Shown: positions 1 through 19,015 of the stretch, in pieces
How the letters are laid out: each line of letters starts with the position of its first letter
Position numbering within the stretch: position 1 is the stretch's first letter
From: a virus
Lineage: Duplodnaviria > Heunggongvirae > Uroviricota > Caudoviricetes
IMG/VR virus record: IMGVR_UViG_2541047931_000002
Coordinates: 1-31,884 of that record
Length of the DNA: 31,884 nt
Strand: one strand, 5' to 3'
The notes under the pieces: model-generated
Databases searched by the model: none
Told to the model about the DNA's origin: nothing
Seen by the model: only the letters and a program-made list of their open reading frames with translations
Translations under genes and position numbers: made by a program

Positions 1-3000
1 CTAATCGTGATGCCTGCAGTGGCTTTCTTCATCACAACAACCAGCAAATCGCTGATACTTGCTGTGGGATACCAGCCATTTACCCACCATGCTGATACAG
101 AAAACTCCAGCGTCATGTCGCCGCGACCAGCAGGCATATCAATAACACCACTGTAAACCAGCGTATTATCCATCGCGGTACGGTTATAAATTTCAGCACC
201 GTTTTTCTTCACTATCAGGCGGCATGACGAATAAGTATCGCTGTTCTCCCGCTCATGTCTGGCACCGCTGAAAGCCACCGCCGGAATAACAATCTGCCGG
301 TTAAACGGCTGATCGTCATAAACCCTGACGGTAATGGTTCCTGATGGCCAACGCTTCGGTGCACGGGAGTCACGAGGGAAAGCCTTACCCACTGTTTTAA
401 CGAGATCGCCTTCAATCTGGTTTGCAGACAGTTTCCCTCTGATGACACAGTTCTCGTTAATGGTGACATTATTGAGCGTGCCGGTATTCGCCGTGATGGC
501 TCCACTGATATCCGCATTGCGGGCTGTCAGCCTGCCATCCGGCGTCAGGGAAAACGTCGGAGGATTGCCGGATGACGTGATGCTCACCGCAAACAGTCGC
601 TTCAGGAACACGTCGTTCATGAACAGCTGATTCCCCTGCGCCACAAACAGCGGCGTGGTGTTGCCGTTCTCCGGGGTAATCATCGCGATACGGTCCGCCT
701 GCAGCAGAATACTGCTCAGCGTCTGACCATCAACATCCTCAATCCCCGCGCCAATCCCGGCCACATAGGGAATACCGTTTTTTGTTTTCTGCACCTTCAG
801 CATATACATGGCATTCAGCTCATTGCGCGTGTCTGACTGAACCCGCTGGATTTGCTGTATGGTCACGGCCTGGTCACCCAGTTTTTTATCCGTGGTCGAG
901 GTAATTTCACTCCCTTTTTTATCCACGTACTGGCGGACCTGTGCTATCTGTCGGGCATTTTCTGACTGCCCCTGGCTGACAGTCTGTGAGATTTCACTGC
1001 TCACCCGGTCCACTTTCTGGCTCACCTGCGCGATGGCCAGTGTCTGGTCCTCATTCTTTTTCGCAACCAGCTGCGTGAGGCTGTTTTCCGCCTCCCCGAT
1101 TTTCCGGGTCACTTCTGCGATATCCGTGTCCATCCGCTGACGGATGTCTTCTTCCAGTTGCGTGACCTCCGTACGCAGCGCTGAAGCATCAATGCGCTCT
1201 TTCAGTGCCTGGCCCAGAAGCGTCTCATCTATCAGCCCCCGGAAAATTTCCAGATACCCTTCACCATCATTGCTGGGCTGCCCGCTGGCTTCCACAAAAG
1301 CAGATTTTCCCACCAGGTTGACGCTTCGCACGTAAAACCAGAAATCCGTCCCCGGCTTAATCCGGCTCCCCTGGACAGTCCACTGACTGCCGGTCCCCAG
1401 ATAACGGGCAGATTTTTCCACCTGTGCTGTGTTCGTGATGCGTTTTTCTGAGAACCAGAATTCAAACTGTACCGTCGGGTCATACACCGCAAGACGCGGG
1501 ACCGCCGTTATCTGAAAATACCCCGGCGTCAGCTCAATGGTGGCGGGTTTTGCAGGTGCGTTAATCCGGAACGATACCGACGCCGGATCGCCCTGCTGTC
1601 CCCGGGCATTTACCGCCCGGACCGTCAGCGTGTAACGCCCCAGCGCCAGCTGCCTGAAGCGGTAAGTGGTTTCCGCCGTCCGGGCCGTGCTGACCAGCCG
1701 CTCACTGCCGTCATCCGCTGTTACGGTCAGACGGAGCAGGAAGCTCACGCCCTTCACCACCTTCGGCGTGTCCCAGCGCGCCAGCACCTGATATTCCCCG
1801 CTGTCTGCGGTGACTTCGGCGGTCAGGTGCTGCACCGCTGGCGGCGTGACACCATTCACCGTGCCGCTCTGGTCGCCGTCAAAGTGCGCTCCGTTATCCA
1901 CGATGGCCTCTTTTTCCGGTACATGCTGCACGGCGGTGATGGCATACGCACCGTCATCGTTCTCCCGGATACTCACACAGCGGAACAGGCGCTGGCGCAG
2001 CGTCGGCAGCTTCAGCCCCCACACGCTGTATTCGGCAACGCCGTCAGGAATACGGCTCACTTTCACCTTCACGCCGTCGGTGACGGACTGGACCTCCACG
2101 CTGACCGGATTCCCACTTCCGTCAACCAGGCTTATCAGCGTGGTGCCGGAGGATGACAGCATGATTTCACGGTCGAGCGTCAGCGTCCGGGTCTGGCTGT
2201 TCACCGCCAGCACGCGACCACCGGTGCTGATACCGGCATAGTCATCATCACAGATTTCAATGACATCGCCCGGCACATGGCGAAGCCCTTCTGCGCCGAC
2301 GCTGAAATCCACGGTCTGCGTTTCCAGCAGTTCTGTTTTAATCAGCCACAGCCCGGCGCGGTGTGCCTGCCCCCGACTGGTACAGCCAAAGGCATCCATC
2401 TTCGTGACGTTACGACCGTAACGGGCAATGGCCTGCGTGTCCTCCACAAGCTCTGTCGCCGTCTCCCAGCCGTTATCCGGGTCAATCCAGTTCACCTCAA
2501 CGGCATTATGGCGGTCCTTCAGGGCGCTGAAGCTGTAGCGGAACGGCGCGCCATCATCCGGCATCACCACATTACTGCGGTTATAGGTCCACACCTTATC
2601 CGACGGTCGGTCCTGCACGAACGTCAGCGTCTGCCCGTTCCATACCGGCATACAGCGCATCGCCGAGCAGAAATCACTGAGAACATCCCACGCCTTACGC
2701 TGTGTGGTCAGGTAGGCATTACAGGAAATGCGCGGCTCCGTGCCACCAAAACCGTCCGGCACCGACTGGTCGCAATTCTGGCCGATGACATACAGCGCCC
2801 ATTTGTCCACATCCGCCGCACCAAGACGTTTACCCATGCCGTAGCGCGGGTGGGTCAGCATATCCCACAGACACCAGGCCATGTTGTTGCTGTATGCTGG
2901 CTTAAACGTTCCGTCCCAGATACCGCTGTATTGCCGCGTCTGCGGGTTATAGTTCGACGGCACCTGCAGAATGCGCCCGCGAAGATGATAATTACGGCTC

Positions 3001-13578: not shown

Positions 13579-14178
13579 TTATGCATTAAGAAGGGTCAAA
13601 AGACGCTCACGCGCCATTCGTTCGTTAACAGCTTTCTTCAGCGCACCACTCGCCCGCGCTTCCTGCCAGGCTTTCATTGAGCGGACACCAGAGTCTGCGT
13701 CCTGATAGGCCGGATATGTCACCGGGCTGACGTCATACAGACGAGAAATGCGCGTGATTTCCCGGATAACAATCCCCTCGTCGTCTTCATACCAGCTCTC
13801 TCCGTCACGGGCGACACGAAACGCGAACGAGGACTGATTAATGTCACCACGCAACATTGGAGACAGCACCAGGTCACAAATAGTCGGAGTATCCGGTGCA
13901 ACAATGTCATAACGTAAACCGCGTTCATCCACCGACAATGACAACGTGCCGGCAGAACTTCGTCCGAGAATGAAATTAGGATCATGATTAAACAAGCCAC
14001 GTACATCATCATTCAGTACATCATCAAAAGCCCCCGGCTTGATGATTTCACGAAATCCCCACAGAGGTTCTGAACGACTGTTAAATACCGAGCCATACCC
14101 CAGAATGTGGGTCGGGGCATTATCATATTGTTCCGCCCGCACCTCCCCGCTGTAACAGCGCGTTTCACGGTCATTCAT
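13579..14178 (-). CDS. Prohead protease, HK97 family
   Basis: 199-aa ORF between portal and capsid; overlaps the portal 3' end by 8 nt. Confidence 0.85.
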   Translation of the reverse strand: MNDRETRCYSGEVRAEQYDNAPTHILGYGSVFNSRSEPLWGFREIIKPGAFDDVLNDDVRGLFNHDPNFILGRSSAGTLSLSVDERGLRYDIVAPDTPTICDLVLSPMLRGDINQSSFAFRVARDGESWYEDDEGIVIREITRISRLYDVSPVTYPAYQDADSGVRSMKAWQEARASGALKKAVNERMARERLLTLLNA

Positions 14179-15397
14179 CGTTCTTTTCCTCTTTGCCTTT
14201 CGTATCTTTAAAGTTATTCAACGGATTTGCTGCATTTACGCTGACCAGCATTTCATCCAGACCGTCAACCGGATTCATATCCTCAAATGCCCTGGCTTCA
14301 TTCCGACTCATCCAGCCATCTGTAATGGCAAAGTGATAGAACTGCGCACGCTCCTGTGGGGTCCCACGGAGCAACCCCGTGAGGTTGAAACGAACGTAAT
14401 ACCCGGCAGCCCGTTCTGTACGGGTAAACAGGCGACGGTTAAGCTCCTGCTCCCAGTTCGCAACCCAGGGCATCATCGTGTAGCGAACAAACTGAATCGC
14501 CTGCTGCGTAATATTCGAAAATGTGGCTTTTTCCAGGTCATTAATCATGTGCGCCGGGACATTAAAAATCCCGGCAATCATCGACCGGTTCAGCTTGGTC
14601 ATATCAATGATCTGAGCATCCACCGGAGAAACTGTCAGAGCGCGGTAATCCAGTTGCGCAGGCAGCAACATGGTTTTATTTTCCTGGCTGCGAAGCGCTG
14701 TCACCGCCCGCTGCCACATATTTTTAAGCCTGCCCCAGCTTTGTTCGTTCAGTTCATTTTTCACAGAAATAATACCGGCAGGACGGGCATTACCGTTAAA
14801 AAAGGCGCTGGTATACTGCTGGCCACTCATTCCCATACCAATGGTTTCAGCATGCTGCATGATCGGGCTCAGTCCCATTTTCTGATTGTTTCCCAGCGCC
14901 CTGATATGGATCATGTCGTCCGGACTTACCGCAAATGCACCCTCTTCGTTATACACCCCGTAAGTATGACGCCCACCGGTGTTAAGTAACGTGGTTTCCC
15001 ATGGCATACAGCATTCAAGGCTGGTAACCTCTCCACGACGATTACGTTTTACCCACGTATAACCATTGCCCCACCCCAGCACATGACGCTGCTTCAGTTC
15101 CCGCCACTTATAGCTGGTCTGCCAGGCATTAGGTTCATCATGAACGAGCCAGAACAACGGATGATCGCGTGCCGGCTGAACATGCTCATTCGTTTTTCGC
15201 ATCACATGCAGGGGCATCTGAGCCACACTGGATGAAATAACATAAATACAGGCATAGACAGCAGCCAGCTTCATGGATGTTTCCGGACTGACATACACAT
15301 CCCGGGCAAAAATATTATCCGTCTCAGCGGCCTCTCCGGTTACCGGAACCGAGGGATTTTCCAGAGGCTCACTGCGAAACAGAGCATCAAGAAGCAT
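14171..15397 (-). CDS. Portal protein, HK97 family
   Basis: 408-aa ORF downstream of the large terminase; AGGAGA RBS; typical size and position. Confidence 0.9.
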   Translation of the reverse strand: MLLDALFRSEPLENPSVPVTGEAAETDNIFARDVYVSPETSMKLAAVYACIYVISSSVAQMPLHVMRKTNEHVQPARDHPLFWLVHDEPNAWQTSYKWRELKQRHVLGWGNGYTWVKRNRRGEVTSLECCMPWETTLLNTGGRHTYGVYNEEGAFAVSPDDMIHIRALGNNQKMGLSPIMQHAETIGMGMSGQQYTSAFFNGNARPAGIISVKNELNEQSWGRLKNMWQRAVTALRSQENKTMLLPAQLDYRALTVSPVDAQIIDMTKLNRSMIAGIFNVPAHMINDLEKATFSNITQQAIQFVRYTMMPWVANWEQELNRRLFTRTERAAGYYVRFNLTGLLRGTPQERAQFYHFAITDGWMSRNEARAFEDMNPVDGLDEMLVSVNAANPLNNFKDTKGKEEKNDE

Positions 15398-15548
15398 GTT
15401 TTCTCCTCATGGACACCACCAGTGCATAAAGCAGCAACAAACAGCCCGACAGCATCAGAGACGCTGGCAGACCTGCATACAGATAAACGCCAGCAGTGAG
15501 CAAACCGAAACCGATCAGCCCGGTCATATCAGTAATAAGCTGTTTCAC
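15387..15548 (-). CDS. Small hydrophobic protein (about 53 aa) between large terminase and portal
   Basis: Unlisted ORF (below 60 aa) translated by hand: (V/M)KQLITDMTGLIGFGLLTAGVYLYAGLPASLMLSGCLLLLYALVVSMRRKHAS. GTG start overlaps the TerL stop, GAGGA about 12 nt upstream; two hydrophobic stretches; fills an otherwise unexplained 150-bp gap. Confidence 0.3.
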   Translation of the reverse strand: MKQLITDMTGLIGFGLLTAGVYLYAGLPASLMLSGCLLLLYALVVSMRRKHAS

Positions 15549-17302
15549 AGAATTAACAGGTCCTCATCAGGATCAAGCGTGGACAGAAAGTCATTCACGC
15601 CCCCTCCATTTACCAGAAAGCGGCTCATGGCTGTAAAAAGCGCAACAGGGCCGTCGATTTTGGCTTCCGGCGTGGATTTATTCGGGAAGATGTTGTCGTT
15701 TTTGTCCGGTTTTACAGTAACGTTAGACATCATCCAGTTCATGACCGGATGATTGCTGTGATGGAAACGCCCGGCATAAACCAGTGATTCCGTTTCCTTC
15801 ATGGCCTCTGACAGATTGCGGACCGTCTGCGGAACCTCCACCAGCGGTATCCCTTCTTCAGCCAGTGCCAGGCTGAACTGCATTGCGCTCCACGGGTCAA
15901 ATCCCAGTTCCCTGAGGTTTTCACCGCCAATCCATTCCAGTAAGTCACTTTTTATCTGAGCATGATCGATAACATCGCCATCCGTCAGGATGAGCTTATC
16001 CATCTCCGCCCACTTCCGGTAAAGTTCTGCCTGCTGCCGCGAGCATCGTTCCAGCCGTCCTTCCGGAAGCCAGAATTTAAAATCAGCATGAACATGTCCG
16101 TTATCGGTTCGCCAGAGTTTTGCCGCCGCACAGATATCAATCTTATGAGCAAGGTCGACGCCGACCCACATGGGATATGTTTTCAGCTCATGTTGTGGAG
16201 CAATGTATTCGCACTTCTCCCACTTAATCATATCCATCCAGGCAGATTCGGCAGTGACCCACACATTCATGTGTTTGGTAAAAAAATTCACCCGCGCAGA
16301 GACCTGCTCCTTCGCTTTTTTCGCCAGACGACGCAGATCATCCCAGCGTTTACAGATGCCCAGGCCAGGATTCGCTTTCTGCCAGACCGTTTCATCAAAC
16401 GGATCATCTCCCTCATCAAGCGTGTAAATGATCGCAAAGTAAGAGTCGTCTTTTACAGCGCCCTCCACGTCGCTGTTAAAGCCTCGCAATACCTTGATGG
16501 CGTAATCACGCTGCTCGTAACAAATCCCTTCCTTGTTAAAGCCAGCCGTGGTGATACCAAATAACAGGGACTGCAGACGGGCACCGGTTGCCGTTTCCAG
16601 AACGTCCCACACGTCGCGGGTTTTATGTGCATGCAGCTCATCAATAATGGCGCAGTGGATGTTCAGACCGTCCAGGTTGTTTGCATCCGAGGAAAGCGGT
16701 TCAAATTTTGATGCGCTCTGCTCCTGGTAAATCGCCAGCTTGTTGAAATCAAACAACCGCCCGAGTGTCGACCGGGCTTTTCTGACCATATTTTTGGCGT
16801 CTTCAAACACGATTCTGGCCTGGTCACGCGTGGTTGCGGCTGAATACACCTCAGCTCCGCCTTCACTATCTGCCCCCGTCATATACAGGCCGATACCCGA
16901 TGACAGTGTTGATTTTGCGTTTTTACGGGCGACTTCGTTGTACGCCGTCCGGAACCGGCGCACCATCACCGGACGTCCGCTGCCATCGCTGCGCATGACA
17001 ACTTCCCCGGTTTCTTCATTGACCAGCGGAATGACAAAACCAAAAATATTAATGAGGATAAATACATGCCAGTCCATCAACTCAATGGGCTGGCCTGCCA
17101 GTGCCCCTTTTACATGAGGCACAAATTTGTAGAAATTCAGGATGTGCTGCGCACGGGGTTCACTGAAATAAATCCCCCGCTTTTCGCCGTACTTCAGATC
17201 ATCAAGAAAACGCTGGCAGGCCAGGCGGACAAATTCGCCAGCAACAATTTCTCCTGCAACAACACGTTCGGCGTAGCGGATCCCGTCAGCCACTTTTGCC
17301 AT
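15545..17302 (-). CDS. Terminase large subunit
   Basis: 585-aa ORF with N-terminal ATPase and C-terminal nuclease regions; start overlaps the TerS stop (TGATG). Confidence 0.9.
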   Translation of the reverse strand: MAKVADGIRYAERVVAGEIVAGEFVRLACQRFLDDLKYGEKRGIYFSEPRAQHILNFYKFVPHVKGALAGQPIELMDWHVFILINIFGFVIPLVNEETGEVVMRSDGSGRPVMVRRFRTAYNEVARKNAKSTLSSGIGLYMTGADSEGGAEVYSAATTRDQARIVFEDAKNMVRKARSTLGRLFDFNKLAIYQEQSASKFEPLSSDANNLDGLNIHCAIIDELHAHKTRDVWDVLETATGARLQSLLFGITTAGFNKEGICYEQRDYAIKVLRGFNSDVEGAVKDDSYFAIIYTLDEGDDPFDETVWQKANPGLGICKRWDDLRRLAKKAKEQVSARVNFFTKHMNVWVTAESAWMDMIKWEKCEYIAPQHELKTYPMWVGVDLAHKIDICAAAKLWRTDNGHVHADFKFWLPEGRLERCSRQQAELYRKWAEMDKLILTDGDVIDHAQIKSDLLEWIGGENLRELGFDPWSAMQFSLALAEEGIPLVEVPQTVRNLSEAMKETESLVYAGRFHHSNHPVMNWMMSNVTVKPDKNDNIFPNKSTPEAKIDGPVALFTAMSRFLVNGGGVNDFLSTLDPDEDLLIL

Positions 17303-17784
17303 CAGTCTCTCGCTTTTAAAAGCTCTGCCAGCGGATCAACATTATCCGGTCCGGCGGTATTTACTTTTGCCCGGCTTGCCGGTGACATACCAAATTCTGC
17401 AAGCATCGCCCGGATCCGCTTCCAGGCATCCGCTTTCATCGCAGCAGCCGGGTGTGCCTTAATCAGCACATCACCGTTCTGCGTTTCCGAGCGGTAGGTG
17501 TACCCCTCAACATCGAGTGTTTCGCAGTGATGCCGGTATTCGGTATAGGCTTCCACCAGTAGCTCAAGCGCACGCGCATCAAGCTGAGAAATGATCCCTT
17601 CCGCATTCAGCTCTTCCGCCATTCGCCTGAACCAGTACTTCCCCTGCGCCCCTAAATGTTGCGGAATTTTAGGGAGACCTTTTTCATCCTTTTTAGCGGT
17701 TTTTTTGAGGTCTTTAACTGGCCGCTTTGAGGGGTTGCCTCGTATCAAATGCAGGCGTGGCGGGATTTTCGGGGGTCCAGACAT
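17302..17784 (-). CDS. Terminase small subunit (P27 / HK97-like)
   Basis: 160-aa ORF MSGPPKIPPRLHLIRGNPSKRPVKDLKK... directly upstream of TerL; an HNH endonuclease is nearby, as in HK97-like cos phages. Confidence 0.8.
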   Translation of the reverse strand: MSGPPKIPPRLHLIRGNPSKRPVKDLKKTAKKDEKGLPKIPQHLGAQGKYWFRRMAEELNAEGIISQLDARALELLVEAYTEYRHHCETLDVEGYTYRSETQNGDVLIKAHPAAAMKADAWKRIRAMLAEFGMSPASRAKVNTAGPDNVDPLAELLKARD

Positions 17785-18013: not shown

Positions 18014-18529
18014 ATGGATAAAACCAGAAAATATGACAGAGCCTTACAACTTGAAATCCTCAATGCCCTTATAGATTGCGCGCCTAACTCTTTAAACAAG
18101 GCACAGGAGCGAGACCTCATTGAGAAGTTTGACAGTTACGATCACTTTGTGGCGTGCATGTTATACCTTGAAATGCATGGTCTCGTTTCCACCCCCTTCA
18201 TACGCAGTGACACCATGGCTGGCGTTGAGTTTATCTTCTGTGCCCCTAACTGCTACATTACAGAAAAAGGAATTGATTTTCTTCTCGATGATGGCGGCTT
18301 AAGTGCGATCCTTAAAGTTCAGACCTTTCGGTTACACAGTGACACGATTGTTGCCCTTGAGGATATAATCCGTGTCGCAAATATATCTGAAGATCAGAAG
18401 AAGGGATTGATTTCAAAACTCCGAGAGCTTCCGGGAGACGCCATAAAACATTTGACCCTACAGTTACTGACTCAGGGGGTTCTGAATCTGCCGAACGCAC
18501 TTCGACTAATTCAAACAACCCTCCAGTAG
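18014..18529 (+). CDS. Hypothetical protein (171 aa), opposite-strand cargo gene between lysis and packaging modules
   Basis: ATG with GGAG about 10 nt upstream; lower GC than its flanks; hairpin GGGGCGAATT/AATTTGCCCC (18546-18571) plus T-run after the stop; no family recognised. Confidence 0.5.
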   Translation: MDKTRKYDRALQLEILNALIDCAPNSLNKAQERDLIEKFDSYDHFVACMLYLEMHGLVSTPFIRSDTMAGVEFIFCAPNCYITEKGIDFLLDDGGLSAILKVQTFRLHSDTIVALEDIIRVANISEDQKKGLISKLRELPGDAIKHLTLQLLTQGVLNLPNALRLIQTTLQ

Positions 18530-18664: not shown

Positions 18665-19015
18665 TCATCGAATACGTTCCCTTGCTGTCTTCTCTCTGTG
18701 GCATTCCCTGCATAACGACTCAAGATTGGAGTCATCATCGGTGCCGCCATGAGCTTTTGGAATCATGTGGTCTACAGTCCTGGCCTCAACGGCTCGTCCA
18801 TTGCGCAGACAGTTCTTACACAGATGGTTATCACGCTTCAGTATACGCGCACGTATAACATCCCATTTCGAGCCATAGCCACGCTGGTGGCGACTCAGTC
18901 CGCGTTGATGCTGTACCCATCCTTCACCACGATGTTTATCGCAGTAACCAGAACTGTCTGTGGTTGTACCTGCGCATCCACGCTTACGGCAGGCACGTGG
19001 GATTCGTGATGGCAT
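18665..19015 (-). CDS. HNH endonuclease (packaging-associated)
   Basis: 116-aa ORF with Cys/His clusters (CRKRGC...CDKH...HLCKNC...DHMIPKAHGGTDDDSNLESLCRECHREK). Confidence 0.85.
   Translation of the reverse strand: MPSRIPRACRKRGCAGTTTDSSGYCDKHRGEGWVQHQRGLSRHQRGYGSKWDVIRARILKRDNHLCKNCLRNGRAVEARTVDHMIPKAHGGTDDDSNLESLCRECHREKTARERIR

Follow-up and report, generated by a model that had tools for sequence, protein, structure and literature searches.

What is encoded in the gap between the large terminase gene and the portal gene of an HK97-type head module? The question is raised by a stretch of 31,884 nucleotides, termed the window (IMG/VR virus record IMGVR_UViG_2541047931_000002), which is an Escherichia coli lambdoid prophage with such a module. 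On the minus strand, the genes follow the order small terminase (TerS), large terminase (TerL), a 53-codon open reading frame (denoted the small ORF), portal, S78 prohead protease, and major capsid protein, and 147 nt separate the terL stop from the portal ATG. An earlier, sequence-only reading of the window proposed that the frame at 15387-15548, beginning at a GTG that overlaps the terL stop and ending inside the start of portal, is a gene for a small hydrophobic protein. These coordinates and this anatomy are correct, and the description is accurate apart from leaving the strand unstated. Comparison with relatives indicates that the small ORF is almost certainly a genuine protein-coding gene. 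Its 53-residue product, MKQLITDMTGLIGFGLLTAGVYLYAGLPASLMLSGCLLLLYALVVSMRRKHAS, probably forms a membrane hairpin according to hydropathy and structure prediction, and analysis of the locus points, tentatively, to a function linked to portal or to assembly.

The small ORF in relatives and catalogues

An open frame of this length is not significant by itself because 10% of shuffles of its 156-nt interior also stay free of in-frame stops, and the case for a gene therefore rests on relatives. The close relatives compared are Klebsiella phage vB_VIPKPNMC05, Escherichia phage vB_EcoS-733R5, Klebsiella phage 1 LV-2017, Edwardsiella phage EPP-1, Shigella phage SfV, and Salmonella phage F1055. At 70-74% DNA identity, all carry a frame of 52-53 codons that overlaps terL through ATGA or GTGA and overlaps portal by 7-11 nt. 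Length varies among them by one whole codon only and no frameshifts occur, which is the opposite of the poor conservation and frame-disrupting indels that the sequence-only reading had named as evidence against a gene. Among six frames, that of the small ORF alone is open throughout the relatives. Variable sites at codon positions 1, 2, and 3 number 28, 20, and 43 of 47, and over codons 2-48 the pairwise dN/dS values lie between 0.13 and 0.55, with synonymous sites almost saturated; this pattern of codon change shows purifying selection on the small ORF. An antisense ORF of 159 residues (15273..15752, plus strand), which spans the end of terL, the small ORF, and the start of portal, is open only in the window lineage and is considered spurious because 1-4 stops close it in every relative.

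Since the 80 viral contigs examined at the locus were fetched with portal as the query, the sample is unbiased toward the small ORF. An intact 162-nt small ORF is found in 79 of them, with the GTGA overlap in 55 and ATGA in 24. The exception is a prophage end with foreign DNA in place of terL. The 80 contigs yield 12 distinct small-ORF proteins, including an 81-residue fusion (P0004, within loci L008-L087) in which DNA encoding MQAEILLTLKLQQKLFADPRRISLLKHIALSG takes the place of the whole of terL and of small-ORF codons 1-7. This segment presumably resembles the N-terminus of ModE, and the arrangement suggests a prophage truncated exactly at the small ORF, beside a host gene. Within E. coli, the 801 nt of the window from 15100 to 15900 are 100% identical in strain APEC O1 and many further strains, and similar DNA is present in 931 of 5426 complete genomes.

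The family reaches well beyond these relatives. A profile search collects 122 clusters at 90% identity across Enterobacterales, and an exhaustive HMMER search of 1.84 billion representatives (E<=1e-3) gives 174 clusters at 50% identity, nearly all 47-60 residues long and aligned end to end. A tblastn search of the phage collection with the family consensus gives no hits, probably through the effect of the low-complexity filter. Distant members (below ~50% identity) with readable contigs lie, in seven of seven cases, between TerL (PF03354/PF20441) and a PF04860 portal and overlap both genes. Where measured, their identity to the window protein is 33-47%; some family members in the search tables are 29-32% identical, and one distant member of the slot comes from a Porticoccaceae metagenome-assembled genome. 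A P27-family TerS precedes TerL in six of the seven contigs, the seventh (L098) being cut at its 5' end, and the slot persists with either type of downstream protease, ClpP-like or S78. The intact frame, the low dN/dS, and the position of distant members together support the proposal of a genuine gene for a small hydrophobic protein. What would favor a chance open frame in an intergenic gap, with no gene at all, is the share of shuffles that stay open together with the lack of a strong, ideally spaced Shine-Dalgarno sequence before the window GTG; as far as sequence comparison goes, the relatives refute this explanation, and it is scarcely credible. One representative in the search library, P0122 (131 residues), is frameshifted after about codon 40 of the hairpin, so that its frame continues into the portal N-terminus (…MLLDTLFRSEPLENP…); a pseudogene or an assembly error is a likelier origin than a natural fusion.

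The gene is not new, being already annotated and catalogued. The sequence-only reading called it unlisted, and it is indeed absent below a 60-residue reporting threshold; that absence is due to this cut-off only, and RefSeq/PGAP as well as many GenBank phage records annotate the exact ORF (WP_000811487.1, locus APECO1_RS31570, 'hypothetical protein'). Residues 1-52 of the window protein match positions 1-52 of the 52-position profile of PHROG 7105 (E=9.4e-20, 71 bits), and all of 48 diverse family members also hit this profile. PHROG 7105, the protein's own family, is unnamed, lacks a Pfam or NCBIfam model, and carries no functional assignment in the catalogue; Pfam, NCBIfam, and Rfam hold no family for the peptide or the region. 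Membership in Pfam DUF1056 (PF06341), supposedly a small gene between terL and portal in lactococcal 936-group phages, was rejected for lack of a Pfam match, and that placement is not borne out in phage sk1, whose terL-portal slot holds an HNH endonuclease. KpAvs2/Ksap1 was likewise set aside as an unrelated soluble protein encoded elsewhere in its genome.

Two further catalogue families share the slot. PHROG 502 ('membrane protein'), represented by a 60-residue ORF of phage phi467, has the same position between terL and portal, a two-helix hairpin, and a basic tail. The window protein matches it at E=1.3e-6, the phi467 ORF matches PHROG 7105 at E=0.005, and 19 of 48 family members match PHROG 502. 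The phi467 ORF differs in being ~29% identical, in starting 11 nt after terL without overlap, and in accompanying another TerL tail and a portal 31% identical to that of the window. Orf3 of Pseudomonas phage D3 (PHROG 4810), annotated since 2000, encodes 54 residues, overlaps terL by 4 nt and portal by 8 nt, and shares two hydrophobic helices, a basic tail, and glycines at corresponding spacing. PHROG 4810 is matched by the window protein at E=3e-4 and by 13 of 48 members. However, D3 orf3 is without the MKxLxxD N-terminus and scores 10 bits against the family HMM with heavy composition bias, so that homology is no more than plausible. Cross-matches among PHROGs 7105, 502, and 4810 range from E=1e-6 to 5e-3 for sequences that are short and compositionally biased, and common ancestry of the three is likely but unproven.

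A practical reminder is that older reference annotations can lack the small ORF. In SfV (L006, NC_003444) the frame is intact at locus positions 1530..1691 (MKSLIADVIGLAGFGLLTCGVYLQFGMAPALILSGALLLVGALAMARRGTRAA) and missing from the reference annotation. The portal of SfV is annotated at locus positions 1633..2907, and by homology its start is the GTG at 1681, so the annotated start is probably 48 nt too far upstream. The annotation of Klebsiella phage 1 LV-2017 likewise omits the small ORF.

Predicted protein and its expression

Hydropathy recovers the two hydrophobic stretches that had been described, at about residues 8-24 and 28-46. The 19-residue Kyte-Doolittle mean reaches 2.2 in helix 2 and about 1.5 in helix 1, and the whole peptide has a GRAVY of 0.99. 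AlphaFold2 with the family alignment predicts two helices joined at G26 with a mean pLDDT of 84.7. The family follows the motif MKxLxxD-xxGLxGF-xxLxxG-xYLxFG-LxxALMxxG-xLLLxxA-basic tail, in which G20 and G35 are invariant and G13, G26, and D7 nearly so; the helix 1 glycines G10, G13, and G20 are conserved. Helix 2 presents a conserved face of L31, G35, L38, L39, A42, and S46, and only 87 of 5000 permutations attain its periodicity. G10, G13, L17, and G20 lie on a single face of helix 1, but the periodicity there is not significant. The conserved faces fit tight helix-helix packing through small residues, within or between hairpins. Foldseek searches of PDB and BFVD return nothing significant, the best BFVD matches being other uncharacterised phage proteins of ~55 residues, and are uninformative because the query is a bare hairpin.

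Charge distribution gives the hairpin a predicted orientation. The C-terminal tail carries +1 to +3 in all 15 tabulated loci. The N-terminus is close to neutral, and a conserved Asp marks the helix 1 boundary. Under the positive-inside rule, such charges would place both ends in the cytoplasm and the YLxFG turn in the periplasm.

The small ORF is embedded in its neighbors (Table 1). Its start overlaps terL by 1-4 nt in 14 of 15 diverse loci, and its stop lies 1-26 nt inside portal, so that the portal start is overlapped in 15 of 15. In the window, the GTG (15548..15546) and the terL TGA (15547..15545) have two bases in common, in the context ctGTGAaa, and the conserved N-terminus MKxLIxD fixes this GTG as the start codon. 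No conserved Shine-Dalgarno sequence is visible 5' of the start across the 15 loci, and the GTGA overlap suggests termination-reinitiation coupling. At the other end, the small-ORF TGA (15389..15387) falls 11 nt inside the portal gene, whose ATG is at 15397, and the final seven codons of the small ORF contain both this ATG and the portal Shine-Dalgarno sequence AGGAGA (15407..15402), which is written in the codons of Arg47 and Arg48. A purine-rich portal Shine-Dalgarno sequence lies within Arg and Gly codons of the tail in most tabulated loci; it is not visible in about four of the 15 (L088, L089, L090, and the SfV row, itself mis-set). An explanation of the frame through RNA structure was rejected, as the portal-start region folds no better than shuffles (z=0.03) and the Shine-Dalgarno sequence is not sequestered.

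In 15000..16200, a simple consensus scan detects neither a sigma-70-like site on the coding strand nor an intrinsic terminator. The GC content of the small ORF is 0.494, against 0.512 for terL and 0.503 for portal. The small ORF thus appears to be an integral, translationally coupled part of the late operon, and its product is probably made at levels no greater than those of TerL.

Table 1. Positions of the small ORF, its parts, and its neighbors in the window
Feature	Position	Strand	Basis
P27-family small terminase (terS)	17302..17784	-	ORF list and Pfam
Large terminase (terL), 585 residues, upstream neighbor of the small ORF	15545..17302	-	Pfam TerL_ATPase and TerL_nuclease
terL final 15 codons and stop (DFLSTLDPDEDLLIL*), inherited with the small ORF and portal	15545..15592	-	blastn joints, alignment of TerL C-termini
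GTGA overlap of small-ORF start and terL stop	15545..15548	-	sequence
Small ORF, 53 codons and stop, predicted two-helix hydrophobic microprotein	15387..15548	-	ORF list, RefSeq, PHROG 7105, conservation, dN/dS
Predicted helix 1, codons 8-24, Gly-rich, marginally hydrophobic	15477..15527	-	hydropathy, AlphaFold helix 2-25, column conservation
Codon 26 (Gly), predicted turn joining the helices	15471..15473	-	AlphaFold break at residue 26; Gly in 46 of 48 members
Predicted helix 2, codons 28-46, strongly hydrophobic	15411..15467	-	hydropathy, AlphaFold helix 27-52, conservation periodicity
Basic C-terminal tail, codons 47-53 (MRRKHAS), net +3, dual-coding with portal ribosome-binding site and start	15390..15410	-	sequence
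Portal Shine-Dalgarno AGGAGA, 4 nt 5' of the portal ATG, within the small ORF	15402..15407	-	sequence
Portal gene, 408 residues, PF04860, downstream neighbor and co-inherited partner of the small ORF	14171..15397	-	Pfam Phage_portal (E=3e-100); identity correlation with the small ORF

Inheritance with portal and possible function

Across genomes, small-protein identity rises and falls with portal identity (Spearman 0.91, n=11 genomes) and does not follow TerL identity (Spearman -0.17, n=8 genomes). The DNA shows the same division. In blastn, the window resembles phi467, mEp235, and related phages along terL up to ~55 nt short of the end of the gene; its resemblance to SfV, EPP-1, and F1055 starts 30-50 nt ahead of the terL stop and extends across the small ORF into portal. 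The window, vB_VIPKPNMC05, and vB_EcoS-733R5 combine the window-type TerL body with the tail DFLSxLDPDxDLLIL, a 7105-type hairpin, and the window portal type. SfV, EPP-1, and F1055 have the same tail, hairpin type, and portal type behind a TerL body of a different lineage. In phi467, a TerL body 97% identical to that of the window carries a different tail, a PHROG 502 hairpin, and the divergent portal noted above. In mEp235 and Pm34, the window-type body carries a third tail, and a different portal abuts terL with no small ORF. From these joints, the last ~16 residues of TerL (DFLSTLDPDEDLLIL), the hairpin, and portal appear to be exchanged as one block. In lambda gpA and other terminases, TerL docks to portal through its extreme C-terminus, and such docking would account for the joint inheritance of TerL tail and portal. 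A mosaic recombination joint is visible in the 3' end of terL at 15545..15603 on the minus strand (loci L005, L006, L007, L094, L095, and L096).

The hairpin is not found with every HK97-type head. In HK97 (L092), mEp235 (L095), and Pm34 (L096), terL and portal abut with a 1-nt overlap and no small ORF lies between them, although mEp235 and Pm34 belong to the window TerL lineage (~80% DNA identity). The hairpin is thus dispensable for some portal types. The earlier statement that terminase and portal genes are normally adjacent describes these three phages, and does not describe D3, phi467, SfV, and many others in which a small ORF intervenes; HK97 itself, which lacks the ORF, is not the useful comparator that it had been taken for.

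From sequence, we infer translation, membrane insertion, topology, and a portal-related function of the small ORF, which can be joined in one proposed mechanism. Ribosomes ending at the terL TGA would reinitiate at the overlapping GTG and make the 53-residue peptide. This would fold into a helix-turn-helix hairpin, in which G26 forms the turn between a Gly-rich helix 1 and a strongly hydrophobic helix 2, and enter the inner membrane with both ends, the conserved Asp7 and the basic tail among them, on the cytoplasmic side. The same ribosomes would continue over the portal Shine-Dalgarno sequence and ATG inside the last codons of the small ORF, and because these signals lie there, portal synthesis would begin where and when the hairpin is made. 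The hairpin would then act with portal in head assembly or packaging, as the exchange of TerL tail, hairpin, and portal in one block leads us to propose. Most likely it would serve as a membrane anchor or helper, by which the portal ring or prohead is positioned or nucleated at the inner membrane. Taken whole, with its functional part, this explanation has a probability that falls somewhat short of even.

The nearest functional precedent is in T4. There, portal assembly begins at the inner membrane with a membrane-bound initiator of gp20, which depends on the small phage-encoded protein gp40 (PMC9958956). T4 differs in genome organisation and head family, and the parallel between gp40 and the hairpin is proposed as one of function, not of homology.

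Several points weigh against the proposed mechanism. HK97-type prohead assembly is not known to be membrane-associated, and the small ORF is no universal requirement because the same kind of head is built by HK97, mEp235, and Pm34, which lack it. A gene placed between two co-adapted elements would be co-inherited whatever its role, so the linkage is suggestive and not proof. The hairpin evolves much faster than portal (62% against 88% and 47% against 80% identity), none of the 174 representatives is a fusion to a portal or terminase domain, and no other direct link to the portal protein exists. Longer hits checked as possible Rosetta-stone fusions were rejected: P0122 is the frameshift and P0004 the truncated prophage end described above, and the rest carry only hydrophilic tails or are repetitive false hits. 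Stable membrane insertion is not certain because helix 1 is only marginally hydrophobic. A literature search found no study of the small-ORF family; papers on the SPP1 genome, gene transfer agents, and Rhodobacter phages treat other genes.

Other functions for a small membrane protein in this position have to be weighed. It may be directed at the host, as a superinfection exclusion or envelope-modifying protein resembling HK97 gp15, or as a moron that benefits the lysogen. Small inner-membrane proteins in phage structural operons can be exclusion proteins, and HK97 gp15 is one, also encoded within the morphogenetic operon of an HK97-like phage (PMC3594210). The sister family PHROG 502 is binned as 'moron, auxiliary metabolic gene and host takeover: membrane protein', and the absence of the small ORF from HK97, mEp235, and Pm34 makes it dispensable there. 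However, gp15 is a tail-region moron that the prophage expresses, and a moron forms a transcription unit of its own (PMC3594210), whereas the small ORF is not considered a moron because it has no promoter-like site, terminator, or GC shift and overlaps both neighbors. Its expression is accordingly predicted to be late-lytic and not from the prophage. The slot is also kept down to 25-38% identity, unlike a sporadic moron insertion, and the PHROG category is an automatic label with no tested function behind it. A host-directed role is unlikely on this evidence. A late membrane modulator tied to lysis, whether holin-like, antiholin-like, or depolarising, could tune lysis to packaging, and would suit two predicted transmembrane helices, a likely N-in/C-in topology, a basic tail, and a weakly hydrophobic helix 1 rich in Gly and Ala. 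Class II holins and pinholins have a similar two-transmembrane design. One family member weakly matches Phage_holin_3_6 (E=0.0028), a match expected by chance because 48 proteins were scanned against 24,736 models, and the window protein itself hits no holin family in Pfam or NCBIfam. The prophage moreover has a complete cassette of its own (class II holin, YdfR, lysozyme, and lysis protein) upstream of the HNH and terS genes, and an endolysin never adjoins the small ORF in the 15 loci examined, which leaves a role in lysis improbable.

Co-inheritance with portal would also suit a virion-internal protein that sits at or near portal, is released with the DNA, and helps to open or prime a passage through the inner membrane at infection; the SPP1 tape-measure protein, found in virions, has four predicted transmembrane segments (PMC6316719). 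Such a role is highly improbable for the hairpin. The peptide is not found in any virion proteome located, reinitiation after terL implies low abundance, and a 53-residue hairpin with so hydrophobic a helix 2 would probably partition into the membrane of the producer cell. No more can be granted to the idea that the peptide has no function and the frame is a translational-coupling spacer that carries ribosomes from terL to the start of portal, which is very improbable. The overlaps at both ends, kept in nearly all loci and covering the portal Shine-Dalgarno sequence and ATG, are as such a spacer would have them, and the purine-rich Shine-Dalgarno codons partly explain the basic tail. Yet dN/dS below 1 is not expected of a spacer, and the invariant glycines, Asp7, and helical face persist across members 25-40% identical with length fixed at ~50 residues. 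Nor is a spacer needed, because terL and portal abut or overlap directly in HK97, mEp235, and Pm34, and the portal Shine-Dalgarno sequence of the window is strong and free of RNA structure. The slot also has a known occupant in lambda. On the lambda map, a small gene in the equivalent position, between the large terminase gene A and the portal gene B, encodes gpW, which is soluble and acts in head completion. The peptide of the window is hydrophobic and has no Pfam gpW match at E<=1, and separate connector and head-closure genes lie downstream in the window.

If the hairpin were a dedicated inner-membrane partner of portal, which is unlikely, a large group of HK97-type temperate phages would assemble portal or prohead, or package DNA, while tethered to the cytoplasmic membrane. 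This group would comprise phages with a P27-family TerS, including SfV, D3-like phages, and many enterobacterial prophages; to our knowledge, membrane tethering of portal or prohead assembly has so far been established for T4 only. The TerL C-terminal tail, hairpin, and portal would then be a three-part co-adapted unit. Were the hairpin to act on portal, one of the best-studied virus assembly pathways would have a component that has been overlooked, and swaps of head or packaging modules in engineered phages or transducing particles would have to retain the small ORF. Finding the gene changes nothing, as it was already catalogued. The family-level picture, of a ~50-residue microprotein held under purifying selection between terminase and portal across hundreds of phage lineages, may matter modestly.

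A neighbouring insert

Between the HNH endonuclease gene (18665..19015, minus strand) and terS lies a gene for 171 residues (18014..18529, plus strand), transcribed opposite to the late operon and listed in RefSeq as WP_000361881.1, hypothetical protein. The ~730-bp insert that carries it is missing from APEC O1 and several strains sharing the head module. Because its position and orientation are moron-like, the 171-residue gene is a candidate accessory or defence gene.

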